Origin: Gaiellaceae bacterium
GTDB taxonomy: Bacteria; Actinomycetota; Thermoleophilia; Gaiellales; Gaiellaceae
Assembly: GCA_036271235.1 (NCBI GenBank)
Contig: DATBBA010000002.1
Location: 802-64,801 of the forward strand
Length of the DNA: 64,000 nt
Direction: 5' to 3'
Every line of letters starts with the position of its first letter. The stretch's first letter is position 1. Below, piece by piece: positions 17,710 through 38,454 of the stretch. Both the position numbers and the translations under genes were made by a program. The notes below the pieces were generated by a model. The model saw only the letters and a list, made by a program, of their open reading frames with translations. It was not told the DNA's origin and did not search any database.

Positions 17710-20700
17710 ATGGCAGTTTTGAGACGGCGCTCGGTCCGATTTGGTCTTCCGGTCGTGTTCTCGCTCGTTGCTGCGACCGCCGTCGCGGTCGGGCTTCCCG
17801 GGTCGGGAAGCACACGCCAGAGCTCGCAGAAGCCGTCGCCGCTCGTCGCGAGCGATACGACGATCGCAGGCGACACTCCGCTCGCGGTCAGCGGCCACCA
17901 GGCGAAGCTCGTCGGCCGGCATTCGGCCGGCTCGGTGCTGTCGCTCAACTTCACGCTGCCGCTCTCTCACCCGGCTGAGCTCAACGCGCTCATCGCGCAG
18001 GAGTCGAAAAGCCACCAGTACCTGACGCGCAGCGAGCTCTATGCCCGGTTCTCGCCCACCAGGGAACAACTCCTCCACGTCGACAACTGGCTTCGGTCGA
18101 GCGGCTTCCGGATCACCCACGTCGGCGCGGACCGCCTGTCGCTGACCGCGAGCGCGTCGACGGCGAAGGTCGAGAAGGCGCTCCACGTCCGGATCGACGA
18201 CTACGTCAAGCCCGCTTCTACGTTCGAGAAGGTCAGGGTTCACCCGTACGTCTTCTACGCGAACACGTCCGACCCGACAGTTCCCGCCGGCCTCGGCCTG
18301 CAGAGCATCTCCGGGCTCTCCGACGTCGACCGCTTCTTCACGGCGGCTCAGCTCGCGAGTGCGGCCGCCGGCTGCGGCGACGACGATTCCGGCTCGACGA
18401 ATCCGCAGTGCGTCCTCGTTCGGAGCGGCGGCTACTTCCCCTCCGACCTGCGCTCGCTCTACGACGTCAGCGGGCACGGATACGACGGCACCGGCCAGAC
18501 GATCGGCTTCACGCTCTGGACGGTTCCGGAACGCCAGTCGGCGATGGACCTGTTCGCGAGCACGACCAGCGACACGGCCATCACCGTCGACCCCTCGTGC
18601 ACGGCGACGGGCAACTCGCCCACGACGCCGAGCACCTGCTCGACGCAGACGGTGGCGTCGAATCATCTGATGACGATCCTCGAGAACGGCAACAGCGACA
18701 CGCTGAACAACTTCGGCTCGAACGTCGAGACGGCTCTCGACATCGAGATCGCTCACGGAATGGCCCCCGGCGTCGCGATGAAGTACTACGCCTCGGAGTG
18801 CTCGTCGACGACGGACGCGGGCTCGGGCCTCGCGAACGCCGGCTGTAACGGCACCGATGTAGGGCTGGAGGACGCGGTCGAGGATGCTGCGAGCGACCCG
18901 ACGCTGCACAGTGTCTCGAACAGCTGGGGCTACGGCGGCGATCCCGAGTGGGGCCCCACGGACCCGTTCATGACGGCGATCTCCAACAGCCTGGCGCTTG
19001 CCGCTGCGGCGGGCACGACCTTCTACTTCTCGACCGGCGACTCCGGTACCTATCAGTCCGGATTCCCCTCGGACAGCCCGTACGTCGTCTCGGTCGGCGG
19101 CACGAGCGACTGGTCGACGTCGTCGACGACGACGCGGAGCACCTCGACCACCTGGAGCGCCGGCGGCAGCTGGTGCTCGAACATCATCGCGCGCCCCTCG
19201 TGGCAGACCGGGGCCGGCGTCACCGCGAACGCGCCCTGCCCGGGCCGCGTCAGCCCGGACGTCTCGGCGATCGCCGACACCTCGACCCCCGTGCGCTTCG
19301 TGTCGAGCACGGACCTGTCCGGCGGCACCGAGAGCGGTTCGGTCGGCGGCACGAGCGTCGCGGCGCCCGCCATGAACGGGCTCGAGGCCGACACCGAGAA
19401 CTTCGTCTCGGCGCAGACCTACCCCGGTTCGGCTCCCGCGCTCGGGTTCGTGGCGCCGGTGCTCTACCAGCTCGGAAACGGCGGCAACTACGACAGCTAT
19501 TTCCACGACATCCAGTGCGGCAATACGGCCAGCCCGACGAGCGCGCCCGACGGCGATGCCGCACAGCCCGGATGGGATGCGGCCACCGGCTGGGGCGAGC
19601 CGGATTGGTTCAACTTCGCGACCGGCTATGCGCTGTCGCTGGGTGCCACCAACCTCAGCGTGCCGTCGAGCCTGGCCCAGGGCTTCAACTGGACCTGCGC
19701 GAAGACGCCGAGCAACTCGACCGAGCGAGGCATCTCGTGCCCGTCCTCGACGGTCTGTTACGCGGTGGGGAGCGCCTCCGGCGGCACCCCCTGGCCCGCC
19801 AAGTTCCTGCCGTCCGGTAGCTGGGGTGCGGCGAACACGTTCTTCGAGTCCACGGACGGCGGCCAGACCTGGTTCCCGTCGAACAGCGACATGCTCTCGA
19901 TCGCCTGCACGGGTGGAGCGTCCTGTATCGAGGTGGGCGACGGCGGGCGTGCCCGGGAGACGACCGACGGCGGCGGCACCTGGACCGACGTGGCGACCGG
20001 CTTCGACAAGGCGCTCACTCAGGTCAACTGCCCGTCGAGCTCGATCTGTTACGCGGTCGGCGACCGAGGGACGGCGCTCAAGTCGAGCGACGGCGGCCAG
20101 TCCTGGTCGTACCTGCAGAGCACCGACGGGAACCCGCTCTACGGGCTCTCGTGCCCCTCGACCACGGTCTGTTACGCGACAGACATCTACGCTCACCTTC
20201 TGAAGACGGCCGACGGCGGCGCGAGCTGGACGTGGCAGTCGACGCCGGTGACGACACCCGGGGTCGATGTGGCACAGTCGGGCGGGCCGAACCCGTTCGC
20301 GGGCCTGATCGCGATCGCCTGCACCGACGTGAGCACGTGTGTGGCGTCGGGCCTCTACGCCAACGTCTCAGGCCAGACCCTCCCGAGCACGGACCCGCCG
20401 ATCGTCACGACAACCGACGGCGGGACCACGTGGACGCTGCAGACGAGCAACGCCGGTAGCGGGAACTATCTCCACGCGATCGCATGCCTGCCCGGTACGA
20501 CCACCTGCTACGCGGTCGGGCGCGGAGGGACGATCGTCTCGACGACCAACCTCACGACCTGGACGGCGATGACCTCCGGAACGACGAACCTCCTCGACAG
20601 CATCTATTGCCCGGGTGGATCGGCGTTCTGTATCGCGGTCGGCCAGAACGGCACCGTCGATACCTTCGACGGAACCAACTGGACGGCAACCTCCGGCAAC

Positions 20701-23181
20701 GGCGGGAACGGCACCCTCGCCGACGTCGCCTGCCAGGGCAACCTCGTCTGCTACGCGACCGGCAAGCAGGGGATCACGCTCCTGACGACGACCGGCGGAA
20801 CGGGCTGGGTGCAGCAGGCGGGCGGCGGCACGACGCAGCAGATGAACGCCGTCTCGTGCCCGGACACCTCGACGTGCTACGCCGCCGGGAATGCCGGCAC
20901 GATTCTCAAGACGTCGAACGGCGGTCAGACGTGGACGGCGCAGACAAGCGGCGTGACCTCGAACCTGGCCGGCATCTCGTGCTCGTCGGATAGCGGCTGC
21001 GCCGCGGTCGGAGCGAACGCCGGCAACCCGACCACGCTCTCGGCGGCCGCGGCCGTCGGCGACACGAACATCAAGGTCGCGAGCGTGACCAACTACGAGG
21101 CCGGCCTGACGATTGCGATCGATACCGGAGCGAGCCAGGAGCAGGCCACGGTGGCGAGCGTCGGGACGTCCGGCGCGGGCGGGACAGGCATCACGCTCAC
21201 CGCGCCGCTCACGCAAGCGCACGCCTCCGGTGCCGCCGTTGCCGGGATCGCAGGTGCCCTCCACACGAGCGACGGGTCGACCTGGAGCATGGCCTCGGGT
21301 CAGGGCTTCAGCGCGCTGAACGGCGTCTCGTGTGCCTCGGCGAGCTCGTGCACCGCGGTCGGCGCGTCGGGGGCGATCGTCGCCTCGGGCGACGGCGGAG
21401 CGACCTGGTCGCCGAAGTCGAGCGGGATCACCGCAACCCTGAGTGCGGTCGCCTGCCCGGGCTCGACGACGTGCTTCGCGACGGGGTCCGCGACCAGCGG
21501 CACCGCCCTCATGCTGCGCACGACGGACGGCACCACCTGGTCGCCGCAGACGATCGGAGGCGGACAGAACCTCACCGGTCTCGCCTGTCTCGACACGTCG
21601 AACTGCTTCGCGGCGGGCGCAGCAGGCACCGTCATCACGACCACGGACTCCGGTGCGACCTGGACGCAGCAGGGCAACCCGCTCAGCGGTCCCGTCAGCG
21701 CCCTGAACGTATCGAACCTCGCAATCAACGCGGCCGCTTGCAACAGCGCGAACTGCGTTCTCGGGGCCGGGGCGCAGGCGGACATCGTGCTGTCGCCGCT
21801 GCTCACGGTGACCGTGAACACGTCGAGCGGGTTCGGCTCGACGCCGCCTGTAACCGGGATCGCGGCGAGCTCGCCGTCACTCACGTTCTCACCCTCGGGC
21901 GAGGCGGCCAACGTCACCGGCACGCTCACGTGCTCCACCACGGCGACCACCGCGAGCCCGGTCGGGAGCTACCCGATCTCGGCCTGCAACGGCCTCACCG
22001 ATCCCGGCTACAGCGTCGTCTACGCCTACGCCGGAAGTGCAGCGCAGATCACCGCCGCAACGCAGACGATCACGTTCCCCGACCCGGGCTCGAAGACCTT
22101 CGGCGATCCGGACTTCACCGTCGCGCCGACCGCTAGCTCAGGTCTCACGGTGTCGGTGTCGGTCGGCGGCTCCAGCACCTGCACGGCGAGCGGCTCCACG
22201 ATTCATCTGACGGGCGCAGGCTCGTGCGCGATCACCGCCGCACAGGCGGGGAACGGCAACGTCGGCGCCGCGGCCAGCGTGACCCGGACGATCGCGATCG
22301 GCATGGCCAACCAGACGCTCACGTTCCAGGCCATCGCCGACCACACGTTCGGCGACGCGGACTTCGGGATCTCGGCGAGTGCGAGCTCAGGGCTCGCCCC
22401 ATCCTTCGCGGTCGGGGCCGGGTCCGCCTGCACCTTGAGCGGAACGACCGTCCATCTCACGGGCTCCGGCTCGTGCTCGATCACCGCATCGCAGGGCGGC
22501 AACGCCAACTACAACGCCGCCGGCGCAGTGACGCGCTCGTTCGCGATCGCGCCCGTGCCCGTGGTCGCGGTCACGAAGACATCGCAGTCGATCAGGTTCG
22601 TTGCGATCAGGAACACCGTGTTCGGCACTCCTGACTTCAAGGTCTCGGCGACGGCAAGCTCATCGCTGCGGGTCGGGTTCGCCGCGTCCGGCAAGTGCAC
22701 CGTTCGCCCGGGCTCCGCCGGGTTCGCGCTCGTCCACCTGACCGCTGCCGGCTCGTGCACGATCACGGCCTCGCAGGCCGGGGACGCGAGCAGGCTTGCG
22801 GCAACGCCGGTGGCCCGTACGTTCAAGATCGCGGCGTTCAGCCGCGGGAAGGCCGCGGGCACCGCGCTCGCGACCGGGAACGGCGGCACGGCGAGCTTCG
22901 GCGTCAACGGCACCGGGCGGAAGCTCACGGGCAGCCTGAGCTGGCATCGCAAGACAGTCCAGTTCGACGCGAAGAAAATCACCGGCTTCGCGCTCGCCGC
23001 CGGCGGGAAGGCCGCCTGGATCTACGGCGTCGGCAAGGACGGACGGAAGTTCGAGCTCTACGTCTCGGACAACGGGACGCAGTCGAAGCGAGGGGGCGAT
23101 CCGGACGTGTTCAAGCTCTGGATCGCGGGCAAGCTCGCCGCCGGCGGCAAGCTCACGCACGGCAACGTGAAGGTCTCGTAA
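17710..23181 (+). CDS. secreted multidomain protein: signal peptide, pro-kumamolisin activation domain, sedolisin (S53) peptidase, 13-14 BNR/Ycf48-like propeller blades, 3 Ig-like repeats, conserved C-terminal module
   Basis: Signal peptide MAVLRRRSVRFGLPVVFSLVAATAVAVG. Prodomain ..YLTRSELYARFSP..VDNWL... S53 motifs ETALDIEIAHGMAPG and GGTSVAAP (Ser codon 19354..19356). Repeated SxDGGxTW motifs. Confidence 0.9.
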   Translation: MAVLRRRSVRFGLPVVFSLVAATAVAVGLPGSGSTRQSSQKPSPLVASDTTIAGDTPLAVSGHQAKLVGRHSAGSVLSLNFTLPLSHPAELNALIAQESKSHQYLTRSELYARFSPTREQLLHVDNWLRSSGFRITHVGADRLSLTASASTAKVEKALHVRIDDYVKPASTFEKVRVHPYVFYANTSDPTVPAGLGLQSISGLSDVDRFFTAAQLASAAAGCGDDDSGSTNPQCVLVRSGGYFPSDLRSLYDVSGHGYDGTGQTIGFTLWTVPERQSAMDLFASTTSDTAITVDPSCTATGNSPTTPSTCSTQTVASNHLMTILENGNSDTLNNFGSNVETALDIEIAHGMAPGVAMKYYASECSSTTDAGSGLANAGCNGTDVGLEDAVEDAASDPTLHSVSNSWGYGGDPEWGPTDPFMTAISNSLALAAAAGTTFYFSTGDSGTYQSGFPSDSPYVVSVGGTSDWSTSSTTTRSTSTTWSAGGSWCSNIIARPSWQTGAGVTANAPCPGRVSPDVSAIADTSTPVRFVSSTDLSGGTESGSVGGTSVAAPAMNGLEADTENFVSAQTYPGSAPALGFVAPVLYQLGNGGNYDSYFHDIQCGNTASPTSAPDGDAAQPGWDAATGWGEPDWFNFATGYALSLGATNLSVPSSLAQGFNWTCAKTPSNSTERGISCPSSTVCYAVGSASGGTPWPAKFLPSGSWGAANTFFESTDGGQTWFPSNSDMLSIACTGGASCIEVGDGGRARETTDGGGTWTDVATGFDKALTQVNCPSSSICYAVGDRGTALKSSDGGQSWSYLQSTDGNPLYGLSCPSTTVCYATDIYAHLLKTADGGASWTWQSTPVTTPGVDVAQSGGPNPFAGLIAIACTDVSTCVASGLYANVSGQTLPSTDPPIVTTTDGGTTWTLQTSNAGSGNYLHAIACLPGTTTCYAVGRGGTIVSTTNLTTWTAMTSGTTNLLDSIYCPGGSAFCIAVGQNGTVDTFDGTNWTATSGNGGNGTLADVACQGNLVCYATGKQGITLLTTTGGTGWVQQAGGGTTQQMNAVSCPDTSTCYAAGNAGTILKTSNGGQTWTAQTSGVTSNLAGISCSSDSGCAAVGANAGNPTTLSAAAAVGDTNIKVASVTNYEAGLTIAIDTGASQEQATVASVGTSGAGGTGITLTAPLTQAHASGAAVAGIAGALHTSDGSTWSMASGQGFSALNGVSCASASSCTAVGASGAIVASGDGGATWSPKSSGITATLSAVACPGSTTCFATGSATSGTALMLRTTDGTTWSPQTIGGGQNLTGLACLDTSNCFAAGAAGTVITTTDSGATWTQQGNPLSGPVSALNVSNLAINAAACNSANCVLGAGAQADIVLSPLLTVTVNTSSGFGSTPPVTGIAASSPSLTFSPSGEAANVTGTLTCSTTATTASPVGSYPISACNGLTDPGYSVVYAYAGSAAQITAATQTITFPDPGSKTFGDPDFTVAPTASSGLTVSVSVGGSSTCTASGSTIHLTGAGSCAITAAQAGNGNVGAAASVTRTIAIGMANQTLTFQAIADHTFGDADFGISASASSGLAPSFAVGAGSACTLSGTTVHLTGSGSCSITASQGGNANYNAAGAVTRSFAIAPVPVVAVTKTSQSIRFVAIRNTVFGTPDFKVSATASSSLRVGFAASGKCTVRPGSAGFALVHLTAAGSCTITASQAGDASRLAATPVARTFKIAAFSRGKAAGTALATGNGGTASFGVNGTGRKLTGSLSWHRKTVQFDAKKITGFALAAGGKAAWIYGVGKDGRKFELYVSDNGTQSKRGGDPDVFKLWIAGKLAAGGKLTHGNVKVS
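19681..21798 (+). repeat. 13-14 tandem propeller-blade repeats (BNR/Asp-box S-x-D-G-G-x-[TS]-W) each preceded by a C-x(4-6)-C-[YFV]-A-x-G motif
   Basis: Examples: ISCPSSTVCYAVG..STDGGQTW, VNCPSSSICYAVG..SSDGGQSW, VSCPDTSTCYAAG..TSNGGQTW, LACLDTSNCFAAG..TTDSGATW. Confidence 0.8.
22063..22836 (+). repeat. three tandem ~86-aa Ig-like repeats
   Basis: Shared pattern Q-x-I-x-F..FG.PDF......ASS.L.....G..C......V.LTG.GSC.ITA.Q.G......A..V.R.F.I, seen three times. Confidence 0.75.
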
Positions 23182-23234: not shown

Positions 23235-24008
23235 TCATCGCGTGACGACGCGGCGGTAGCGCCAGATCGCGAGTGCCGCTGAGACGGCGGCGATGCCGAC
23301 CGACCACGCGACGGCCAGCCACACGTCGTTCCCCACCGGGGTGCCGAGAAAGAGGCCGCGGACGGCGTTGACCATGATCGTGAACGGGTTGTTCTCGGCG
23401 ACCGGCTGCAGCCAGCTCGGCATCGAGGCGACCGGCACGAAGGCCGAGGAGACGAACGTCAGCGGGAAGATGATCGTGAAGCCGTAGGCGTTCGCCGACT
23501 CCGGAGACGATGCCGCGAGGCCGACGAAGGCGAAGACCCACGAGAACGAGTAGCCGATCAGGAGCAGGAGCGCGATCCCCGCGACGACGTCCGGGACGCC
23601 CGTCTTGAAGTCGAAGCCGACGAGCAGCCCGACCCCGAGCACCACGACGAGCTGGACCACGTTCGTGCTCACGTCGGCGAGGGTGCGGCCCGTCAACACG
23701 GCCGAGCGCGACATCGGCAGCGAGCGGAACCGGTCCATCAATCCCTTCTTCAGATCCTCGGACAGGCCGAGCGCGGTCACGAACCCGCCGAACGCCATCG
23801 TCTGCACGACGATTCCGGGGATCAGGAAGTCGACGTAGCTGAGCCCGGGCGTGGAGATCGCGCCGCCGAAGACATAGACGAACAGCAGCACGAACATCAG
23901 CGGCTGCACCGTGAAGCCGATCAGCAGGTCGGGCTGGCGAGGGATCCGCTTGGCATTTCGAACGGCGAGCACCCACATGTCGCTCAGCCCGTAGGTGAGT
24001 GCCTTCAT
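23235..24008 (-). CDS. ABC-2 type exporter permease (DrrB-like)
   Basis: 257 aa with six hydrophobic helices and a family-typical N-terminus. ATGA overlap with the upstream ATPase gene. Confidence 0.85.
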   Translation of the reverse strand: MKALTYGLSDMWVLAVRNAKRIPRQPDLLIGFTVQPLMFVLLFVYVFGGAISTPGLSYVDFLIPGIVVQTMAFGGFVTALGLSEDLKKGLMDRFRSLPMSRSAVLTGRTLADVSTNVVQLVVVLGVGLLVGFDFKTGVPDVVAGIALLLLIGYSFSWVFAFVGLAASSPESANAYGFTIIFPLTFVSSAFVPVASMPSWLQPVAENNPFTIMVNAVRGLFLGTPVGNDVWLAVAWSVGIAAVSAALAIWRYRRVVTR

Positions 24009-24961
24009 TCTTCCTCGTCCGCCGCGGTCGTCCGCCCGGTCAGCGTCAGGAACACGTCGTCGAGCGTGGGGCGCTGCGTCGCGATGTCGTCGACGGCGAT
24101 GCCGGACTCGTCGAGGCGGCGGACGGCGGTCGTCACGGCCCCATGCGCGCTCACGATCGGGACCGAGACGGTGCCGTCGAGGACGACCGGCGGGCCGGAG
24201 CCGACGTCAGCGAGCACCTCGGCGGCGGCGGGAGACTGGGCCGGGTCCGCCAGCCGGATCTCGAGCCGGTCGCCGCCGACCTGGTCCTTCAGCTCCGCGG
24301 AGGTCCCTTCCGCGATCACGAGCCCGTGGTTGACGACTGCGATCCGATCGGCGAGGCGGTCGGCCTCCTCGAGGTACTGCGTCGTGAGCAGCACCGTCGT
24401 GCCGCGGGCCGTGAGCGCCTCGATCGAGTCCCAGAGCGCCTGCCGGCTGCGAATGTCGAGGCCGGTCGTCGGCTCGTCGAGAAAGAGGATTGGAGGCCGG
24501 GCGACGAGCGATGCCCCCAGGTCGAGCCGGCGGCGCATTCCACCGGAGTAGGTACGGACGAGCCGGGTCGCCGCATCCGTGAGCCCGAACTCCTCGAGGA
24601 GCTCGGTGGCCCGCTGCGCCGAGGCGCGCCGCCCCAGGTGGTAGAGCCGCCCGACCATCTCGAGGTTCTCGTGGCCGGTGAGATTCTCGTCGACGGCCGC
24701 GTACTGCCCGGCCAGCCCGATCTGGCGGCGGACCCGCGACGGATCGCGGACGACATCGACGCCTGCGACGCGCACCGTGCCACTGTCCGGCTCGAGCAGC
24801 GTCGTGAGGATCCGGACCGCGGTCGTCTTGCCGGCCCCGTTCGGGCCGAGCAGCCCGAGGACGGTGCCCGGGGCTGCGGCCAGGTCGATGCCGCGGAGAG
24901 CCTCGACCTCGCCGTAGCGCTTGCGGAGGTCGACCGCCTCGATCGCCAGCTGCTCGGACAC
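24005..24961 (-). CDS. ABC transporter ATP-binding protein (DrrA-like)
   Basis: Walker A GPNGAGKTT, signature YSGGMRRRL, Walker B ILFLDEPTTGLD. Confidence 0.9.
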   Translation of the reverse strand: MSEQLAIEAVDLRKRYGEVEALRGIDLAAAPGTVLGLLGPNGAGKTTAVRILTTLLEPDSGTVRVAGVDVVRDPSRVRRQIGLAGQYAAVDENLTGHENLEMVGRLYHLGRRASAQRATELLEEFGLTDAATRLVRTYSGGMRRRLDLGASLVARPPILFLDEPTTGLDIRSRQALWDSIEALTARGTTVLLTTQYLEEADRLADRIAVVNHGLVIAEGTSAELKDQVGGDRLEIRLADPAQSPAAAEVLADVGSGPPVVLDGTVSVPIVSAHGAVTTAVRRLDESGIAVDDIATQRPTLDDVFLTLTGRTTAADEEE

Positions 24962-25099: not shown

Positions 25100-26977
25100 A
25101 TGGACGCACCTCGAGTCCGACGGCGAGCAAGACACGAGAGCGATGGGCGTAAGGGGACGCCGTCCGCCGGCGTGAACGGGCCGTCAGGGCTGATCATCCG
25201 CCTCCAGCAAGGCGCCGGGAATGCGTCTGTCAGCCGCCTTCTCCATCCGTCGCCGCAGCGGGCGCTCTCGCGGTTCGTCGGCCCCGAGCACGAGGCGCTC
25301 GGGAATACGACGGGTGCCTCGATCGATCTCGGCAACGGGATCGTCCTCACGTGGGGCGAGATCGTTGCGCTCGCCGGAGACGAGTACAAGTCGCTCGACG
25401 ACCTCCTCGCCGACACGAAGGACGACGCGGGCAAGGCGCGCCTGCGGGCCGCGCTCGAGCACGACGAGATCCCGGGAGCGATCGCGGCGACCCTGCCGGA
25501 GCCGACCGCCGCGCAGAAGAGCGAGCACGAGGCGAAGTACATCCAGCTCGCGATGCACAACGTCGAGCATTTCCCGGACCACGGTGCGGCACTGGGCGCC
25601 TGGGGCAACTACCACGCGGCGGCGATCGAGCTCGCCGTCCAGGCGGGGCTCTCGAACGATCCGGCCGGGATGAACCTCGCCTACGCGAACGAGGCCTTCG
25701 GCGAGCATTTCCTCACCGACTGCTACTCGGGCGGCCACATCCGCACGCCGCGCACGGAGATCGTCGACTTCTACTCGGTGTTCGGAGCGCATGTGGCGGA
25801 GGCGATGGTCGACAACATCCGAGCCCGCCTGATCGAGGCGCTCGTCGTGGAAGCCTCACCACAGACATCGGTGCCGGACTCCTGGCTGCGCCACAAGATC
25901 AGCGGCCGGGTCACCCCGGGCATCGACAACGCCATCGCCACTGCAGGAGGGATGGCGAAGCTCGGCGAGTTCATCGGCCTCGGAATCGGAGGAGCGATCA
26001 GCGGCGCGATGCACGACGAAGAGGGCAAGAACGGCGTGCAGGTCGCGAGCGACGACCATCCAGAGACGTGGACGGCATTCGGTGACGGCAACCTCGATCG
26101 GAGCCCGGTGAGCAGGGAGCAGGCGACGAGGGCGATTGCGGAGGCGAAGGCGCAGGTGGACGAGGCGTTCGTGATCGGTGCGAGCGAGGGAGCGACGCGG
26201 GACACCGCCGTTGCCGTGCGCGACCCGCCCGCGGTGGTCCACTTCGGGTTCGACTCGGACGCGCTCACGGGCGAGGGTCTCAGCGCTGCTGACACCGCCG
26301 CCGCCTACATGACGTACCGACCGGAGACGGTCGTCCACATCGTCGGCCATACCGACCCGGTCGGGACCGAGACCTACAACCAGGGTCTTGGCCAGCGACG
26401 CGCCGATTCGCTCGCTGCGGCGCTTACGAGTCGCGGGGTCGAGGCGGGCCGCGTCCACGCCGACTCGATGGGCGAAGGAGCGCCGATCACGCAGGAGCCG
26501 AAGCAATACAGCCGCAACCGGCGAGCCGAGATCGGGTGGGGGTCGGGCTCGTCGTCCGGAGGATCAGGCTCGTCCGAGCCGGACCCGCAGCAGCTCGCCA
26601 CGACGCGCGCGATGGCGAAGGCGCAGGCGCGCGCCGACACCGGGCTCGTGCTGCGGTTCGTCCCTCGCCCGGTCGAGGAGCGTGAGCAGGCGAGCGTCCC
26701 CGGCGGCAACACGGATCTGCCCGAGTGGCGTTGGGGCAGCATGGACCACACGTTCCGCGACACGGTAGACACCTGGATTCGCGCCGAGGTCGGCACGAAG
26801 CTCGAGGACGCGCTCGACAAGGTGCCCGAGCTCGACGAGCAGACCGAGACGGTGCCGGTGACCGGAACGGTGATCCGTGTGCATCCGCGCGACCGCGCGA
26901 AAGAGCTCGTCAGAGCGCTCCTTGCGAATCCGACCGAGGAGCTCGGGAACCTCATGGGCGACCCTCCGGGCCCGTAG
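25100..26977 (+). CDS. hypothetical protein: N-terminal LQQGAGNASVSRLL leader motif, His-rich central domain, OmpA/MotB-type peptidoglycan-binding domain
   Basis: OmpA_C-like VVHFGFDSDAL..IVGHTDPVGTETYNQGLGQRRADSL..NRRAEI (about 26230..26540). Central NVEHFPDHG and GEHFLTDCYSGGHIRTP. No Sec signal. Confidence 0.8.
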   Translation: MDAPRVRRRARHESDGRKGTPSAGVNGPSGLIIRLQQGAGNASVSRLLHPSPQRALSRFVGPEHEALGNTTGASIDLGNGIVLTWGEIVALAGDEYKSLDDLLADTKDDAGKARLRAALEHDEIPGAIAATLPEPTAAQKSEHEAKYIQLAMHNVEHFPDHGAALGAWGNYHAAAIELAVQAGLSNDPAGMNLAYANEAFGEHFLTDCYSGGHIRTPRTEIVDFYSVFGAHVAEAMVDNIRARLIEALVVEASPQTSVPDSWLRHKISGRVTPGIDNAIATAGGMAKLGEFIGLGIGGAISGAMHDEEGKNGVQVASDDHPETWTAFGDGNLDRSPVSREQATRAIAEAKAQVDEAFVIGASEGATRDTAVAVRDPPAVVHFGFDSDALTGEGLSAADTAAAYMTYRPETVVHIVGHTDPVGTETYNQGLGQRRADSLAAALTSRGVEAGRVHADSMGEGAPITQEPKQYSRNRRAEIGWGSGSSSGGSGSSEPDPQQLATTRAMAKAQARADTGLVLRFVPRPVEEREQASVPGGNTDLPEWRWGSMDHTFRDTVDTWIRAEVGTKLEDALDKVPELDEQTETVPVTGTVIRVHPRDRAKELVRALLANPTEELGNLMGDPPGP

Positions 26978-27037: not shown

Positions 27038-27697
27038 TCAGTCGCCGTCGCTCTGCTCGAGATAGGCGAGCACGGCAAGCACGCGGCGGTGGTCGGAGTC
27101 GGACGGTCCGAGCCGGAGCTTCTGGAAGATGCTCGCGACGTGCTTCTCGACCGCGCTCACGGTGAGGAAGAGCGCCTTGGCGATCCCGCCGTTCGAGCGG
27201 CCCTCGGCCATCAGCTCGAGCACCTCGCGTTCACGCGGGGTGAGCGCGTCGACCGGGCTCGCGCCGCGGTGGCCGAGGAGCTGAGCGACCACCTCGGGGT
27301 CGAGCGCCGCGCCGCCGTTCCCGACGCGCCGCACGGCCTCGACGAAGTCGGCGACATCGAGGACGCGGTCCTTCAGCAGGTATCCGATTCCGCCCGCCGA
27401 GCCCGCCCCGGCGAGGAGCTCGCTCGCGTAGGTGCGCTCGACGTACTGCGAGACGACGAGGATTGCGACCTCCGGCATCGTCCGCCGCAGCTCGAGCGCG
27501 GCGCGCAGGCCCTCGTCGCGGAAGGTCGGGGGAAGGCGGATGTCGACGATCGCGATCTCGGGCCGTTCGCTCCGCACCGCGTGGACGAGCGCATCCGCGT
27601 CGGCAACGGCCGCGACGACCTCGAAGTCGTTCGCCTCGAGAAGCCGGACCATGCCGTCGCGCAGCAGCGCGAGATCCTCGGCGATCACGACCCGCAC
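27038..27697 (-). CDS. two-component response regulator, NarL/LuxR family
   Basis: Receiver domain (VVIAEDLALLRDG..IVDIRLPP) plus a C-terminal LuxR HTH (LTPREREVLELMAEGRSNGGIAKALFLTVSAVEKH). Confidence 0.9.
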   Translation of the reverse strand: MRVVIAEDLALLRDGMVRLLEANDFEVVAAVADADALVHAVRSERPEIAIVDIRLPPTFRDEGLRAALELRRTMPEVAILVVSQYVERTYASELLAGAGSAGGIGYLLKDRVLDVADFVEAVRRVGNGGAALDPEVVAQLLGHRGASPVDALTPREREVLELMAEGRSNGGIAKALFLTVSAVEKHVASIFQKLRLGPSDSDHRRVLAVLAYLEQSDGD

Positions 27698-29307
27698 GGC
27701 AGCTCCACACGAACGGTTGTCGGGCCACCCTCGGGGCTCACGACGGCGAACCTCCCGTCGAGCGCCTCGACGCGCCGCCGCAGGCCGATGAGGCCGCTGC
27801 CTCCGGGGTCGGCACCGCCGTGCCCGTCGTCCCCGATCTCCACCGACAGCAGCTTGCCGGTAAGGCGCACGTCGACCTCGATGCGGTTCGCGCCGGAGTG
27901 CTTCGACGCGTTGGCGATCGACTCAGCGACGACGAAGTAGGCCGCCGACTCGACCGCCGGCGGGAGCCGCCTGTCGAGCTCGACGGCCACGTCGACCGGC
28001 ACCACGCTGCGGTCCGCGAGCGTCGTGAGCGCCGCCCCGAGCCCACGGTCGGCCAGTACGGGCGGGTGGATCCCGCGGGCCAGGTCGCGGAGCTCCTGCA
28101 AGGCCTCTCCGACCCCGACGCGGGCCTCGGCGACGAGCTGCTGTGCGCTCTCCGGGTCGGACGCGAACCTCTGCTCGGCCATCCCCAGGCTCATCCCGAG
28201 GGCGACGAGCCGTGCCTGAGCGCCGTCATGGAGGTCACGCTCGATCCGCCGAAGCTCGGCGTCCTGCGCATCGACCGCACCCGACCTCGTCGCCTCGAGC
28301 ACGCCGACACGGCGTTCGAGGCGGCTCCCGCGCGCGACGTAGTTGAAGGTTGCGTGCGTCCCGAGAAGGACTGCAGCTGCGAGCATCGGCCAGATGGGCC
28401 AGAAGTACCCGGCCCCCGTGAGTGCCCAGACCGCAACGAAAAAGACGAGGAGCACCCCCAGGATGCCGGCGTGGACGGCGAAGCCACGCGTCAGTATCTG
28501 GCCGCTCCGGAGGCCCGGCCGCTCGTCGACGAGCTCGACGACGCCGTGGATCCCGACGATGAGGGCGAGGGGCAGGATCGCCCACTCGGGCCAGTAGTAG
28601 CCGCCGCCGGTCAGCGCCCAGATCAGCGTCAGGAGGGCCGAGATCGCAAGCCCGATCGCGGCGTCGAAGGCAAGGGCCCGGCGGCGCGCTGTCCGACTCG
28701 GCGCCGCCGGGACAGCGCTGCCCGTGTCGGACAGGAGACGGGCCACGATCCGGCCCGAGAGGGTGCCGAGCGCCCCGACCAGGTGCACCGTGCCGAGCAG
28801 GACGAGCGCGCCCGCGACGGCGAGGAGGAGCGATCGGCTGAGCCTATCCGCATGCCACGACCCGAGCTCGGGCGCGGACCAGCGGTACCAGACCGGACAG
28901 GTCAGGGCCATGAGGCTCGCGGCGAGCAGCGAGACCGTCGCCACCGCGATCGCGAACCCGAACGTCATCCGGAACGCGAGATACACCTGCTGCTTCCAGA
29001 ACCGAGCGTCGAAGAGCACCGCCTTCCCGCGGCCCCAGAACCAGCGCCCGCCCGACGAGAGCGACGGATGCGTTTCGACGCGAAGCAGGGCCCTCGCAAG
29101 GGCGGCATCGACACGCGAGAGCAGGCCGGCCGCACCGCGGAAGCCGACGAGCACCGGGATCACGAGCGGGGTGATCGCGAGCACGACGGTCGTCGTCCAG
29201 CCGGCGATGAAGAGCGCGAGCGCGGCCGCTGCCATGGGGACGGCCGCGATCAGGAAGGCGAGTGCACGGTAGGTGTCGCCTCGGAGAAAGGGCTTCAGGA
29301 GTCTCAT
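27685..29307 (-). CDS. sensor histidine kinase (HisKA_3 / NarX-DesK type) with polytopic N-terminal sensor
   Basis: H-box RIERDLHDGAQARL and an HATPase_c C-terminus. Repeated LTGGGYYWPEW / LTGAGYFWPIW two-TM units. I prefer ATG 29307 (MRLLKPF..). 13-nt overlap with the regulator gene. Confidence 0.85.
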   Translation of the reverse strand: MRLLKPFLRGDTYRALAFLIAAVPMAAAALALFIAGWTTTVVLAITPLVIPVLVGFRGAAGLLSRVDAALARALLRVETHPSLSSGGRWFWGRGKAVLFDARFWKQQVYLAFRMTFGFAIAVATVSLLAASLMALTCPVWYRWSAPELGSWHADRLSRSLLLAVAGALVLLGTVHLVGALGTLSGRIVARLLSDTGSAVPAAPSRTARRRALAFDAAIGLAISALLTLIWALTGGGYYWPEWAILPLALIVGIHGVVELVDERPGLRSGQILTRGFAVHAGILGVLLVFFVAVWALTGAGYFWPIWPMLAAAVLLGTHATFNYVARGSRLERRVGVLEATRSGAVDAQDAELRRIERDLHDGAQARLVALGMSLGMAEQRFASDPESAQQLVAEARVGVGEALQELRDLARGIHPPVLADRGLGAALTTLADRSVVPVDVAVELDRRLPPAVESAAYFVVAESIANASKHSGANRIEVDVRLTGKLLSVEIGDDGHGGADPGGSGLIGLRRRVEALDGRFAVVSPEGGPTTVRVELPCGS

Positions 29308-29599
29308 CGCACGGCCTCGCTTCCGTCGGGATTGTCGCACCCACGGTGCCCGCCACCGGGCCGGCTCACAACGGGGCCACCTGGCCTCAGGGGGTGGGGC
29401 TGTCCGCAGCGGAGCTTGGGGCTGTGCAGCAATCGATGCCCGACGCCGCAAGTTCGGGAAGCTCAGCGTGGTCGATCCGTGGATGGCGGGCGCCGCACCC
29501 GGGCGGTGTCAATCGCGGGCCCATCGCAAGCTCGGGGATGGTGTCTGACGCTGCGGAGCGGCCGCATCAGCCTTGCGGTCATTTGCGGCGCAGCAACCG

Positions 29600-34323: not shown

Positions 34324-34827
34324 CTAGGACACCTTGTGCGAGGTCTTCTTCCGGTGAACGGCGTCGAAGTCGCGCACCTGCCACGTCTCTGCGGCGCCGT
34401 CGAGCTTGTAGCCCTTGATGTGGGAGTTCGTGATCTCGATCGCGAGGGAGCCGAGATCGAGCTCCTGCCCGGACTTGTTCGCCGCCGCCACCGTGAGCGT
34501 GAGCGAGTCGACCCGCGCGTGCTCGGTGGACAGGCGTTCCAGCTCGGCCGAGTGGGGCCCTTTCTGGGAGGTGACATCGAGGGTGTCGGGAACGTCGCTG
34601 GCCGCCCAGGCCGCGATGTTGCCGGCCGCCACGTCGATCAGCAGCTTGCCGAGCTGGATGGTCGCGCCCTTCGACGCCGGTGCTGCCTCGCGGGCGAGTA
34701 TCTGTCCGACGGCCCGGTTGCCGGCCACCTGCTGAAGCGCGAGGACGGGGTGGGCAGCGCGATCGCCCGGACGAGCCGGCGTGTCCTGGGGCCGCTTGCC
34801 TGGCGCGCGCTCACGATCGCGGGACAT
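34324..34827 (-). CDS. small protein: N-terminal LQQVAGNRAVGQIL leader motif + possible Hcp-like beta-barrel domain
   Basis: High third-position GC and no Sec signal. The C-terminal pattern ..SAELERL..VDSLTLTV..ELDLGSLAIEITNSHIKGYKL..ETWQVRDFDAV resembles the second half of Hcp by eye. The start could also be TTG 34848. Confidence 0.65.
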   Translation of the reverse strand: MSRDRERAPGKRPQDTPARPGDRAAHPVLALQQVAGNRAVGQILAREAAPASKGATIQLGKLLIDVAAGNIAAWAASDVPDTLDVTSQKGPHSAELERLSTEHARVDSLTLTVAAANKSGQELDLGSLAIEITNSHIKGYKLDGAAETWQVRDFDAVHRKKTSHKVS

Positions 34828-34957
34828 GACGAACCGACCGTATCGCAATCGGACGGCGGTTCGTGGGTGCCGTGTATGCGGGATCTATGCGCGTCGCCGG
34901 AAGAGTGGAGGCGAGCGGGCCGGACCGGTCGCTCGCTGACACTCCAAGGAGGTAACG

Positions 34958-35655: not shown

Positions 35656-38454
35656 TCAGAGCGAGCCCGCGAGGGCAAGCGCCTCGGCGTCCGCCAGTAC
35701 CCGCCCCGCACCCAGGAGGCCTTCGAGCTCGCGATCGTCGAGCGCCTTCCGGAGCCCCGCAAGAGTCCGGTCGTAGAGGAGTTGCTCGGCCGGCTTGATC
35801 GCGGCGCCGATCCGGTTGAGGAATGCGTCTGCGAAGCCGAGGACGACGGATGCGTCCTCGGCTTTCCCGGTCCGGGCGCCGATTGCGGCGAGCGCGATCA
35901 GGCACCAGGCCATGTCCTCCTTGTCGTTGACGCTCGCGGACAGTTCGAGCGCTTCGAGCAGGAGCGGCTGGGCGAGCTCGAGCCGGCCGCGCTCGATCTC
36001 GACCGCGCCGAGGTTGTACAGCGAGCGCGCGACGTTTGCCACGTCGTTCGCCTGGCGAAGCAGCGCAAGGCTCTGCTCGAACTGGTCCGCGGCGATCTCG
36101 AGCTCCCCCTGGGAGAGGGCGACGTCGCCGCGGTTGTTCCGTGCGAGCGCGATCAGGCGATCCTCGCCGAGCGCCTCGGCAGCCTCGATGCATTCGTCGA
36201 GGGTCTCTGCGGCGCGCTCGAGCTCGCCGAGACCGAGCAGGATCGCCCCGAGATTGCTGAGCGAGCGGACGATTCCTGTGTCGTCGCCGACCTCGCGGTA
36301 CAGGGCGAGCGCGCTCTCGGCGAGCGTGCGCGCACGAAGGTAGTCGCCCTGGAGGACCGCCAGCGCCGACGCGGTCCGCAGCGCCTTCGCGACCAGCGCC
36401 GGGTCCGCCGCCGCCGCCCCGTCGACGGCCTCCGCGAGTCGCTCCAGCCCCTCGCTGAGATGGCCGCGGATGTACCAGAAGCGCGCAAGCGAGGCGGCCA
36501 GCCGAAGTCTCGCCTCAGCCTCGCCCCGTTCTCCCAGCCAGTCGAGCGCACCGCGAAGATCGTCGTGAACGGCTTCGAGCTGCTCGAGCCAGAGGCCCTG
36601 CTCCGGACCGCTCAGCTCGGACTCGGCGCGTTCGGCCCAGCGAACGAAGTAGGCCGCGTGCAGGTCGTGTCCGTGCGCGTCGGCTGAGGGAAGTTCGAGC
36701 CCGTACCCGCGGACGACCTCGAGCAGCCCGTAGCTCGAACCGAAGCGGCGGACGATGCTCGCAGCGACCAGCGCATCGAGGGCCTTGTCGCCGTCCTCGG
36801 TTCCTTCCACGGCCCTCGCCGCCTCGAGAGTGAATCTGTTCCGGAAGATCGTCACCCTGCCGAAGAGATGCCGGGCCGCCGGATCGAGCAGCTCGAAGCT
36901 CCAGTCGATCGCGGCCCGCATCGTACGATGGCGCTCCGGTGCATCGCGAGCGCCTGCCGGGAGCGCATCGAGGCGGGAGTCGAGCAGCCGGACGAGATCC
37001 GACGGCGAGCGCGAGCGGAGCCACGGGGCGGCAAGCTCGATCGCGAGTGGGATTCCGTCCAGGCGCTCGCACACCTCGGCGAATCCCGGCGCTTCCGGGT
37101 CGATGTCGACTCCCGAGGCGGCGGCTCGGCTTGCGAGCAGCTCGCGGGCGGCATCTGTATCGAGCGGATGCAGCTCGACGACCCGCTCGGCCGAGAGTCG
37201 AAGGACGCTCCTGCTCGTGGCGAGCAGGGTCAGTCGCGGCGCGGCCGTGAGGATCGGCGGGAGCTCACCGGCCGCTTCCACGACGTGCTCGAAGTTGTCG
37301 AGGACGACGAGGAGCTCGCGGCCCGCGAGCTCCGCCGCCATCGTCTCGAGCCAGTCTCCGGGCTCACCTTCGCGAAGGCCGAGCGCCCTCGCGATCGCCG
37401 GAACGACCTGCTCGGCTCTGGAGAGCGGCGCAAGGTCGACGACGAGCGCCCCGTCGGCGAAGCGCTCGCCGAGCTCGGCGGCGAGCTCGATCGCGAGCCG
37501 GGTCTTGCCGATGCCGCCGAGCCCGACAAGGGAGACGAGCCGTGTCCGCGAGTCGAGGACGAGCTCGCGCAACGTCGCGAGCTCGATGTCCCGGCCGATG
37601 AGTCGTGTCGACGGAGGCACGACACGGCGAGCGGAGTGCGGCGCGAGGCTCGCTCCCTCGAGGGCCGGATCGTGGACGAGGATCCTCCGCTCGAGCTCAC
37701 GAAGCTCGGGCCCCGGCTCGAGTCCCAGCTCGGCGTCGAGATACGCACGACCCTCCCGGTAGCAGGCAAGCGCGTCTGCCTGCCTGCCCGCCCTGTAGAG
37801 CGCAGTCATGAGGTGGGCCCGCAAGCGCTCGCGCAGCGGAAACTCGGCCACGAGCCTTTCGAGGCCGGGGATGAGCTCGTCGTGCCGGCCGAGTCGCAAC
37901 CCGGCCTCGAAGCGTCCTTCGAGCGCCTGCAGGCGGAGCTCTTCCAGCCGCGCCGTCTCCTCGAGCGCGAACTGCTCGCCGTTCAACTCGACGAGCGCCT
38001 GGCCCCTCCAGAGCTCGAGCGCTCGCGTGAAGAGCGACTCGGCGAGACGGTCGTTGGTATCCGCGAGTGCCTCCCGGCCGTCGACAAGCAGGTTCTCGAA
38101 ACGCTCGGCATCGAGTTCGCCCTCCGCCACCACCAGCCGGTATCGGGCGCGCTCGGTGACGAGGCGGCCGGGCGGAAGGCTGCGTCGAAGCTGCGCGATG
38201 TAGACGCGCAGGACACTGGGCGCGGACGCCGGCGGCGCCCCGTTCCAGATCGCCTCGATCAGTGTCTCGGCGCTGAGCGCCTCGCCGGCGCGCAGCGCCA
38301 TTGCCGCCAGAAGGCGCTCCGGCATCGGGGCAAGCTGGAACGGCGAACCTCCTACCCGTAGCTCGAACGGGCCGAGCACTCGAAGCTCGATCCGATTCTC
38401 GAGCTCCTCGCGCAGCCGGGACTCCGGCTCTGCAGCTGGGTCATTCGACGGCAA
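35656..38454 (-). CDS. SARP/AfsR-family transcriptional regulator (OmpR-type DNA-binding + BTAD + NB-ARC ATPase + TPR)
   Basis: N-terminal winged helix and BTAD (ELWRGQAL..LEELRLQALE..), Walker A GLGGIGKTRLA, and long TPR-like C-terminal repeats. Confidence 0.9.
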   Translation of the reverse strand: MPSNDPAAEPESRLREELENRIELRVLGPFELRVGGSPFQLAPMPERLLAAMALRAGEALSAETLIEAIWNGAPPASAPSVLRVYIAQLRRSLPPGRLVTERARYRLVVAEGELDAERFENLLVDGREALADTNDRLAESLFTRALELWRGQALVELNGEQFALEETARLEELRLQALEGRFEAGLRLGRHDELIPGLERLVAEFPLRERLRAHLMTALYRAGRQADALACYREGRAYLDAELGLEPGPELRELERRILVHDPALEGASLAPHSARRVVPPSTRLIGRDIELATLRELVLDSRTRLVSLVGLGGIGKTRLAIELAAELGERFADGALVVDLAPLSRAEQVVPAIARALGLREGEPGDWLETMAAELAGRELLVVLDNFEHVVEAAGELPPILTAAPRLTLLATSRSVLRLSAERVVELHPLDTDAARELLASRAAASGVDIDPEAPGFAEVCERLDGIPLAIELAAPWLRSRSPSDLVRLLDSRLDALPAGARDAPERHRTMRAAIDWSFELLDPAARHLFGRVTIFRNRFTLEAARAVEGTEDGDKALDALVAASIVRRFGSSYGLLEVVRGYGLELPSADAHGHDLHAAYFVRWAERAESELSGPEQGLWLEQLEAVHDDLRGALDWLGERGEAEARLRLAASLARFWYIRGHLSEGLERLAEAVDGAAAADPALVAKALRTASALAVLQGDYLRARTLAESALALYREVGDDTGIVRSLSNLGAILLGLGELERAAETLDECIEAAEALGEDRLIALARNNRGDVALSQGELEIAADQFEQSLALLRQANDVANVARSLYNLGAVEIERGRLELAQPLLLEALELSASVNDKEDMAWCLIALAAIGARTGKAEDASVVLGFADAFLNRIGAAIKPAEQLLYDRTLAGLRKALDDRELEGLLGAGRVLADAEALALAGSL

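Follow-up and report, generated by a model that had tools for sequence, protein, structure and literature searches.

Background

Cargo of the contractile injection systems (CIS) PVC and AlgoCIS needs a disordered N-terminal sequence in order to be loaded, and this sequence is able to carry foreign cargo; loading depends on the AAA+ ATPase of the cluster, and the leaders are alike within one system and not between systems (bioRxiv 10.64898/2026.05.27.728243; PMC11297309). For AlgoCIS it was found that the domain DUF4157 is dispensable for loading and that the N-terminal region is required (bioRxiv 10.64898/2026.05.27.728243). Leaders of CIS cargo have been reported to be without a conserved sequence motif and to be recognised by bulk properties (PMC11297309; bioRxiv 10.64898/2026.05.27.728243). 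The present study concerns three proteins, A, B and C, which share a short N-terminal motif (LQRxAGNxAV) and are encoded in a 64,000-nt stretch of DNA (positions 802 to 64,801 of contig DATBBA010000002.1, assembly GCA_036271235.1; the whole stretch is from now on referred to as the window) of a soil actinobacterium, a Gaiellaceae metagenome-assembled genome (MAG) of the class Thermoleophilia, Actinomycetota. The three are probably stray CIS cargo, since the same tag sits on toxins and adaptors that are encoded inside CIS clusters of related bacteria. The leader, as defined by its sequence, and its three passengers are new; the kind of system to which they are compared is already known.

Two further groups of proteins are close to those described here. 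In Streptomyces coelicolor the proteins Sco4256-4258 have a common N-terminus and fill the tube lumen, and the CIS of Streptomyces reside in the cytoplasm and have a part in regulated cell death (PMC10066040). The second group is formed by the polymorphic toxins, for which the PVC-type list includes Tox-OmpA, Tox-HET-C and Tox-Glucosaminidase, with OmpA and phospholipase C/P1-like all-alpha domains among the listed passengers (Zhang et al. 2012).

The leader motif in the window

When scanning the window in six frames the motif was found at three places, with exactly the coordinates and sequences given in the first-pass annotation, and at no other site. In protein A, a 625-aa open reading frame (ORF) at 25100..26977 on the plus strand with 100% identity to "OmpA family protein [Gaiellaceae bacterium]" (P0001), it reads LQQGAGNASVSRLL and covers residues 35-48 (25202..25243, plus strand). 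Protein B is encoded on the minus strand at 34324..34827 (167 aa from an ATG at 34827; 100% identity to the hypothetical protein VH063_00190, P0109) and its motif, LQQVAGNRAVGQIL (34696..34737, minus strand), covers residues 31-44, or 38-51 when counted from an alternative upstream TTG at 34848 which gives a protein of 174 aa. Protein C (2610..3875, minus strand, 421 aa; 100% identity to VH063_00070, P0229) has a diverged copy, LRGLGNAAAGRLL followed by QRK, from residue 62 onward (3654..3692, minus strand). Strict, intermediate and loose (GN..[VA]..[LIM]L) patterns all matched these three sites only; by composition 5e-6 strict matches are expected and two were observed, for the loose pattern the figures are 0.12 and three, and 200 shuffles gave neither a strict nor an intermediate match. 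A hidden Markov model (HMM) of the leader, run against 778 ORF translations of the window, scored B with 35.9, A with 35.1 and C with 23.3 bits, followed by a next best score of 7.5, and reached a maximum of 10.5 bits on shuffled ORFs; an HMM built from 75 unrelated genomic loci alone still placed B, A and C as the top three.

Alignments of the three families show the same residues to be retained. G40 and N41 are invariant and Q36 and V44 conserved to at least 90% in the A family (51 sequences), and in the B family (33 sequences) G36 and N37 are invariant and the entire N-terminus is conserved. For C the distant orthologues P0237 and P0239 carry canonical copies, LQSSAGNAAVVRLL and LALQRAAGNAAVARLL, at the position aligned with the diverged one. 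Judging from these alignments, selection acts on the motif in all three families. A compositional artefact of a high-GC proteome rich in Ala, Gly and Arg might be suggested by the GC content of the window (69%) and by a motif rich in A, G, R and L, and is refuted by the expected and observed numbers above, by the invariance of GN in three families and by the 1,896 N-terminally biased profile matches described below. What chance looks like can be seen in viral contigs, where a DNA-pattern scan gave nine matches, all of them off-frame or internal, and the probability of an artefact is regarded as virtually nil.

The N-termini were searched for known export signals with simple heuristics (Kyte-Doolittle 15-residue mean, the pattern RR.[FGAVML][LITMVF] and a lipobox pattern). 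By these heuristics no transmembrane or hydrophobic segment, no twin-arginine motif and no lipobox is present in A, B or C, in line with the first-pass annotation, which had described the three as free of Sec, Tat and lipobox signals; the maximum of the Kyte-Doolittle mean is at most 1.55 and lies outside the leader, and the first 30 residues of A have a net charge of +4 without a hydrophobic segment. WXG100 and LXG domains gave no Pfam match in A, B or C at E <= 1. The leader region of A (25100..25276, plus strand) consists of a basic, disordered stretch (residues 1-26), a helical part with the motif (28-48) and a disordered linker (49-59). In the AlphaFold2 model the predicted local distance difference test score (pLDDT) is below 50 at residues 1-26 and 49-59, and helices are placed at 28-39 and 41-48, with a pLDDT of ~70 for the motif helix.

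Distribution of the leader and its passengers

From 39 leader segments a profile of 32 columns was made, which in a search of 1.84 billion representative proteins matched 1,896 protein clusters (50% identity) with E <= 1e-3. In the 150 best of these clusters the GN pair lies at a median residue of 41.5 (5-95%: 20-86), which bears out the idea of a widespread N-terminal module. In a second survey species-representative genomes were scanned for the peptide LALQRSAGN; 139 sites were confirmed, and 80 of them were retained as loci. With a median motif position at residue 44, these loci show the same N-terminal bias; nearly all belong to Actinomycetota (Solirubrobacteraceae, Streptomyces, Pseudonocardiaceae and others), one is from Anaerolineaceae, and in several genomes the peptide occurs at more than one site. 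Of the 150 best matches (P0243-P0392), 48 have the leader in two or three tandem copies; P0251 has three copies within 97 aa, and in P0255, a member of the A family, three copies precede the QRxxGPEH start of the body.

The proteins behind the leader are diverse. According to Pfam, the best 150 clusters contain eCIS_core (10), T6SS_HCP (7), PG_binding_1 (3), ADP-ribosyltransferases (3), OmpA (2) and EndoU (2), and further passengers are Zeta toxin, a glutamine deamidase and metallopeptidases. For the 80 genomic proteins the corresponding numbers are eCIS_core 17, OmpA 5, Endonuclea_NS_2 4, Gln_amidase 2 and PG_binding_1 2, together with Ntox16, an APOBEC-like deaminase and CHAP. Passengers of this kind are those of polymorphic toxins, above all of the "PVC-type" toxins. 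The proposal of the first-pass annotation that the passengers are related to the cell envelope is borne out only for A; B is Hcp-like and C unclassified.

In the extracellular CIS (eCIS) effectors (Pdp1/Pnf of PVC, Afp18, Cgo1/Cgo2 of AlgoCIS), as in the leader proteins, a hydrophilic and disordered N-terminus without Sec or Tat signals stands ahead of an optional DUF4157 and a variable effector domain. Unlike what is described for those effectors, the leader is a 16-residue helix with an invariant GN, present in at least 1,896 clusters and in several actinobacterial orders, and its role in loading is here a proposed one. The DUF4157/eCIS_core polymorphic toxins share with the leader proteins a constant N-terminal module, variable C-terminal toxins and the frequent lack of an adjacent immunity gene. 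Their exact architecture is found in 24 homologues of A (35-51% identical over ~91% of A), in which eCIS_core is inserted between leader and body, so that, with the 17 of 80 genomic leader proteins in which the leader likewise precedes eCIS_core, the association of the motif with DUF4157 that the first-pass annotation had put forward is confirmed. A, B and C differ from such toxins in having no eCIS_core, and the leader is a separate upstream module that lies outside the PF13699 (eCIS_core/DUF4157) model.

A comparable marker exists for another machine. The MIX-type markers are short conserved N-terminal motifs on unrelated polymorphic type VI secretion system (T6SS) effectors, many of them being orphans, and they can be used for effector discovery; MIX differs from the leader in its motif, its machine (T6SS of Gram-negative bacteria) and its lineage. 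The leader motif is not modelled in Pfam (2025) or NCBIfam (2026), and searches with several spellings did not find it in the searchable literature or in papers on CIS and polymorphic toxins, a coverage that is incomplete and leaves room for earlier informal knowledge.

The passengers also bear on the question of whether the proteins leave the cytoplasm at all. The leader could have nothing to do with transport and be an inhibitory pro-peptide, or a helix that serves regulation or oligomerisation; the missing signal peptide (by the heuristics above) would agree with this, and the cytoplasmic Streptomyces CIS with their role in regulated cell death show that export is not required (PMC10066040). 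OmpA-type, PG_binding_1 and CHAP passengers make little sense in the cytoplasm, however, and a tag that keeps its N-terminal place ahead of hundreds of unrelated toxin domains bears the mark of a trafficking module. The cytoplasmic explanation is considered very improbable.

Association with contractile injection systems

All 1,082 ORFs neighbouring the 80 loci were clustered without prior labels, and recurrent families were confirmed by Pfam. The recurrent neighbours include a Pvc15-like AAA ATPase (10 loci), Pvc16_N, Phage_sheath_1, the Phage_T4_gp19 tube protein, DUF6760 and small eCIS_core proteins. When hallmark proteins were compared with the six-frame ORFs by phmmer, exactly 10 of the 80 loci were found to have at least two CIS hallmark genes beside the leader gene, which agrees with the link to CIS loci that had been put forward in the first-pass annotation; the passengers are, as seen above, typical polymorphic-toxin domains. 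A random 20-kb segment is estimated to overlap with a cluster of ~25 kb in a 9-Mb genome in ~0.5% of cases, to be compared with the observed 12.5%.

Within these 10 clusters the leader genes are placed between the Pvc15-like AAA ATPase/Pvc16 and the sheath/tube genes, and this is the position of the genes for Sco4256-4258, Sle1/Sle2 and Tme, which lie between the AAA ATPase and the sheath gene. The passengers are eCIS_core together with OmpA in L086, L034, L038 and L049, and unclassified bodies elsewhere. In L086 the leader + eCIS_core + OmpA gene is located upstream of the sheath gene and its product has the motif at residue 62 and the eCIS_core domain at 109-179, and in L087 a leader with a glutamine-deamidase toxin is encoded immediately upstream of the sheath gene. 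The small eCIS_core proteins of the clusters likewise bear the leader, adjoin a gene for leader + effector and occupy the cluster position of Sle2, which like Tme carries DUF4157. The comparison with Sco4256-4258, Sle1/Sle2 and Tme is by description only, LQRxAGNxAV not being described in those papers, and A, B and C differ from these proteins in being encoded far from CIS genes. Outside CIS clusters leader genes often occur in adjacent pairs (L025, L048, L050, L068, L085, L091), and a second leader was found on eight of the 1,082 neighbouring ORFs.

The explanation that is preferred here, and that on balance seems rather more plausible than not from the sequences compared, is that the three proteins serve a CIS as orphan cargo or accessory proteins and bear an N-terminal loading leader that is lineage-wide. 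Such a leader would consist of ~25-60 hydrophilic, disordered residues, one amphipathic helix with the consensus (V)LxLQRxAGNxAVxRLL and a short flexible linker, and would be recognised by the assembly or loading machinery of a CIS which this Gaiellaceae genome would be expected to encode. The most likely reader would be the AAA+ ATPase of the Pvc15/Cis15 type, which may unfold the cargo and thread it into the inner tube; a small DUF4157 adaptor which itself bears the leader, located at the spike/tube-initiator complex, might also be involved. Upon contraction of the sheath the passenger would be expelled, in the case of A an all-alpha, His/Asp-rich and probably metal-dependent enzyme domain, joined to an OmpA-type domain by which it would be kept on peptidoglycan. 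Since the leader fits the description of loading in PVC and AlgoCIS and adds a conserved helix to it, it is proposed to be the system-specific loading signal of an actinobacterial class of CIS.

A further claim, put forward tentatively and rather less likely than not, is that the leader is the first sequence-defined and portable cargo-loading signal for a CIS class and exposes a large hidden repertoire of orphan effectors. If the leader is a loading signal, it would provide a one-line rule for finding CIS cargo genome-wide, including proteins such as A, B and C that are missed by predictors based on DUF4157 or on gene neighbourhood, a defined peptide for studying cargo selection by the AAA+ ATPase or the spike complex, and a candidate tag with which foreign proteins could be loaded into the CIS of actinobacteria.

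Several observations weigh against the three proteins being CIS cargo. No CIS genes (sheath, tube, baseplate, Pvc15, Pvc16) are present in the window, as had been noted for sheath, tube and baseplate in the first-pass annotation, and none lie within 10 kb of orthologues of the three proteins or of those homologues of A that bear eCIS_core (P0073, P0082 and P0083), which are orphans too. PF13699 gave no match in A, B or C at E <= 1. The 10 loci embedded in CIS clusters are related to one another, come mostly from Streptomyces and do not count as independent events, and among the 80 no locus from Thermoleophilia adjoins a CIS, all being orphans. The single Gaiella genome in a published survey is without eCIS (Geller et al. 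2021). Some CIS clusters encode eCIS_core proteins without the leader, as seen in L099, and A has no homology beyond the OmpA domain to the leader-eCIS_core-OmpA protein encoded in the Streptomyces clusters. Furthermore, A is according to its model a large, well-folded protein of 625 aa for which entry into the tube would need unfolding.

In the metagenomic CIS cluster L099:2290-14512 (Pvc16_N, AAA, gp25) an eCIS_core + OmpA protein (P0099) is followed by an eCIS_core + Hint protein, both leaderless. OmpA-tagged DUF4157 proteins are thus found repeatedly in CIS clusters, in more than one lineage and with differing N-termini.

The small eCIS_core proteins also allow for another function of the leader, as the site at which DUF4157/eCIS_core proteins, acting in cis or in trans, dock or carry out processing, rather than a loading signal read by the ATPase. 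The helix would then bind a Sle2-like adaptor or the spike/tube-initiator complex, or mark the point of release by a metallopeptidase. The distance of ~40-100 residues between leader and downstream eCIS_core in many proteins and the small leader + eCIS_core protein beside the leader + effector gene in CIS clusters both speak for such a function, as do the binding of Sle2, a DUF4157 protein, to spike-complex proteins and to the N-terminus of its partner effector (PMC13277306) and the proposal that PVC-metallopeptidase frees toxins by autoproteolysis (Zhang et al. 2012). However, eCIS_core is missing in ~80% of the leader proteins, no DUF4157 gene adjoins the orphans, loading in AlgoCIS can do without DUF4157 and not without the N-terminal region, and cleavage is a conjecture. 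Docking or processing in place of loading is considered unlikely, if deserving of a serious hearing.

The orphan loci raise the question of whether the leader needs a CIS in this class. In Thermoleophilia (Gaiellales, Solirubrobacterales) it might work without one, as the tag of an unrecognised route of export or release that was adopted by the CIS clusters of Streptomyces; such a route would bring folded envelope enzymes, Hcp-like proteins and toxins across the monoderm envelope, and is regarded as improbable and as less likely than a portable CIS loading signal. In its more general form, with an unrecognised translocon or lysis-dependent release directing CIS-independent export or targeting in Thermoleophilia and the CIS clusters merely sharing the module, the idea is given marginally less credit still. 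It draws on the leader loci of Solirubrobacteraceae and related MAGs, all of which are orphans, on the Gaiella genome without eCIS (Geller et al. 2021), and on the OmpA domain of A, which needs peptidoglycan outside the membrane, yet stands in a protein without a classical signal. Against this, clustering of the neighbours of the 80 loci yielded no other recurrent secretion-type gene, the recurrent neighbours being CIS genes, regulators and housekeeping enzymes, and the passengers match the known toxin repertoire of eCIS. In addition, eCIS operons are listed for Solirubrobacter soli DSM 22325, a member of the same class, and for Actinokineospora globicatena DSM 44256 (Geller et al. 2021); the leader loci in S. 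soli (four loci) and A. globicatena are orphans, situated on scaffolds other than those of the eCIS operons, and these two strains speak in favour of orphan cargo that belongs to a distant CIS.

Protein A

The public NCBI version of A has 601 aa and starts at a GTG 24 codons downstream, by which most of the basic, disordered N-terminus is lost. The longer form, with the ATG at 25100, is supported because P0002 (82% identical) and P0003 share the basic N-terminus. Exact look-ups of the 625-aa form and of P0091 gave no record, for A because the annotated start differs. With an alignment of 51 sequences AlphaFold2 produced a model of the full protein with a pLDDT of 89.6 and a predicted template modelling (TM) score of 0.82.

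Behind the leader region follows an all-alpha domain of no known family (residues 60-372; 25277..26215, plus strand), which when modelled alone reached a pLDDT of 91.9 (AlphaFold2). Thirteen His, Asp and Glu residues of this domain are invariant in the 51 members (E63, H64, D76, H157, H172, E198, H203, D207, H213, H305, D306, H320 and D329), including H203-x3-D207-x5-H213, and the His-rich strings of A hold H157, H203, D207 and H213. No HExxH is present in A. None of the 51 members gave a Pfam match in the central domain at E <= 5, and no PHROG match was found for it. A Foldseek search of the central-domain model against PDB gave nothing significant (best E 0.26, TM score <=0.2), with Zn-phospholipase C or alpha-toxin chains making up ~14 of the 50 weak matches. 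The spacing H-x3-D-x5-H was likened to the metal ligands of phospholipase C as we take these to be. When the family was compared by hhalign with Bacillus cereus phospholipase C, using an approximate query sequence, the probability was 0.25% and the sole local segment placed HFLTD on HYLGD. An identity as Zn-phospholipase C, P1 nuclease or Het-C was rejected as unproven, there being no significance in Pfam, Foldseek or hhalign. The metal hydrolase suggested in the first-pass annotation is thus plausible from the invariant His, Asp and Glu residues but not established, lacking a Pfam family and a significant Foldseek or hhalign match to Zn-phospholipase C; from the residue pattern the domain is probably a metal-dependent enzyme whose fold is new or very divergent, and it is not counted among the phospholipase C members. 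As a confidently modelled and apparently novel all-alpha, His/Asp-rich domain fused to OmpA it is worth study in its own right.

The OmpA/Pal-type peptidoglycan-binding domain (residues 379-482; 26234..26545, plus strand) is solidly assigned, as had been proposed from the sequence at first reading. PF00691 matches residues 382-474 (26243..26521) with 54.1 bits against a cut-off of 27.2 (E 2e-14) and is found in 46 of the 51 family members. The NCBIfam model Pal_lipo matches with E 6e-21, below its equivalog cut-off, and every NCBIfam equivalog cut-off was missed. Profile comparison with PDB gave 4g4v (E 1.8e-26), matching the OmpA domain alone, and Foldseek of full-length A against PDB likewise gave OmpA matches only, with TM scores of 0.85-0.92 to Pal structures; for 4g4v, 4g4w and 1oap the probability is 1.00, the target TM score 0.89-0.92 and the root-mean-square deviation 1.2-1.9. 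The likeness to the C-terminal domain of Pal/OmpA thus extends to sequence and predicted fold, and peptidoglycan binding is predicted. Unlike Pal/OmpA, A has neither a lipoprotein signal nor a beta-barrel, and the domain stands within a multidomain leader protein of a monoderm actinobacterium. An enzyme domain combined with a peptidoglycan anchor suggests an envelope-directed effector.

At the C-terminus a conserved, unclassified alpha/beta domain (residues 496-619; 26585..26956, plus strand) was delimited from the secondary structure and pLDDT of the AlphaFold2 model, with P522, W545 and P596 invariant. For this domain the sole Pfam signal is a sub-threshold match to Ntox30 (17.2 bits, cut-off 25) in one of the 51 members. 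Nine variants of the A family (P0039, P0056, P0061, P0064, P0067, P0068, P0070, P0071 and P0085; 483-548 aa, 50-56% query coverage) have no OmpA domain and no Pfam match and keep the leader and the all-alpha domain. Their existence indicates that the central domain is the family-defining module and OmpA an optional add-on.

Protein B

Protein B has 160 close homologues of 163-204 aa, all of them hypothetical proteins. Behind the leader its body (residues ~52-167; 34327..34674, minus strand) forms a divergent Hcp-like domain. The body gave no Pfam match, PF05638 (T6SS_HCP) being without a match on B itself at E <= 1, and sequence/profile searches of PDB and PHROG searches with B gave nothing. 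The assignment comes from profile-profile alignment of the B family with leader-bearing proteins that match PF05638 at up to E 1.8e-13: hhalign gave 99.2% (E 3.5e-19) at full length, and 95% (E 4e-8, 91 columns) when only the bodies were compared. By this comparison B is a leader with a divergent Hcp-like domain. It differs from canonical Hcp, which has no leader, and it stays below PF05638 scores. B is a divergent member of a leader + Hcp family of proteins of ~155-220 aa (P0283, P0333, P0347, P0348, P0354, P0387 and P0391). CIS tubes are of the gp19 type, and to our knowledge Actinobacteria have no T6SS; a leader-tagged Hcp-like family in bacteria without type VI secretion is worth study.

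Protein C

Protein C consists of an acidic N-terminus, the diverged leader, a conserved, unclassified body of ~190 residues and a tail. It has 14 homologues and gave no match in Pfam, NCBIfam, PHROGs or PDB. Five weak "Bflower" matches in a Pfam search over 13 family members were ignored, and an impression of likeness to glucosaminidase or lysozyme was dropped for want of support from any tool. The tail (2610..2915, minus strand) is a low-complexity region of ~100 residues rich in Pro, Gly, Ser and Ala, and varies in length and sequence among the orthologues. The ROK-family gene beside C is conserved. In L006:11439-13102 (ENA ERZ25039534 contig_5168) the C orthologue is followed by Amidase_2 (peptidoglycan amidase) and Glyco_hydro_3 genes, which is not so in the window.

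Genes around A, B and C

The genes neighbouring A, B and C in the window include an ABC-2 transporter, a NarL-type two-component system, RsgA, a BTAD/NB-ARC/TPR regulator, ROK, MMPL and others; no type VII secretion system genes were found among the neighbours scanned, and no tRNA or Rfam feature in the window. Protein A is flanked by an ABC-2 transporter pair and by a pair of a GerE-type response regulator and a HisKA_3 kinase (23235..24961 and 27038..29451, both minus strand). In L096, which holds an A-family homologue, genes for a response regulator, HisKA_3, ABC2_membrane and ABC_tran follow immediately downstream, and in L097 and L003, also with A-family homologues, a HisKA_3 kinase gene is located within 3 kb. 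The regulator and transporter neighbours of A and of the A-family loci are moderately similar in sequence; conserved synteny is unproven, and the arrangement could mean regulation by envelope stress.

Located ~0.8 kb from B is the gene of a 932-aa BTAD + NB-ARC/AAA + TPR (SARP/AfsR-like) regulator (35656..38454, minus strand). Large AAA_16/GerE or BTAD regulators recur near other leader genes, in neighbour clusters of eight, five and four loci and in L096, and GerE and BTAD regulators have been found adjoining eCIS operons (Geller et al. 2021). Further upstream of A, at 17710..23181 on the plus strand, a protein of 1,823 aa is encoded with a pro-kumamolisin activation domain, BNR/YCF48-like repeats, DUF6242 and an MBG domain, which is probably a giant secreted protease of the sedolisin type.

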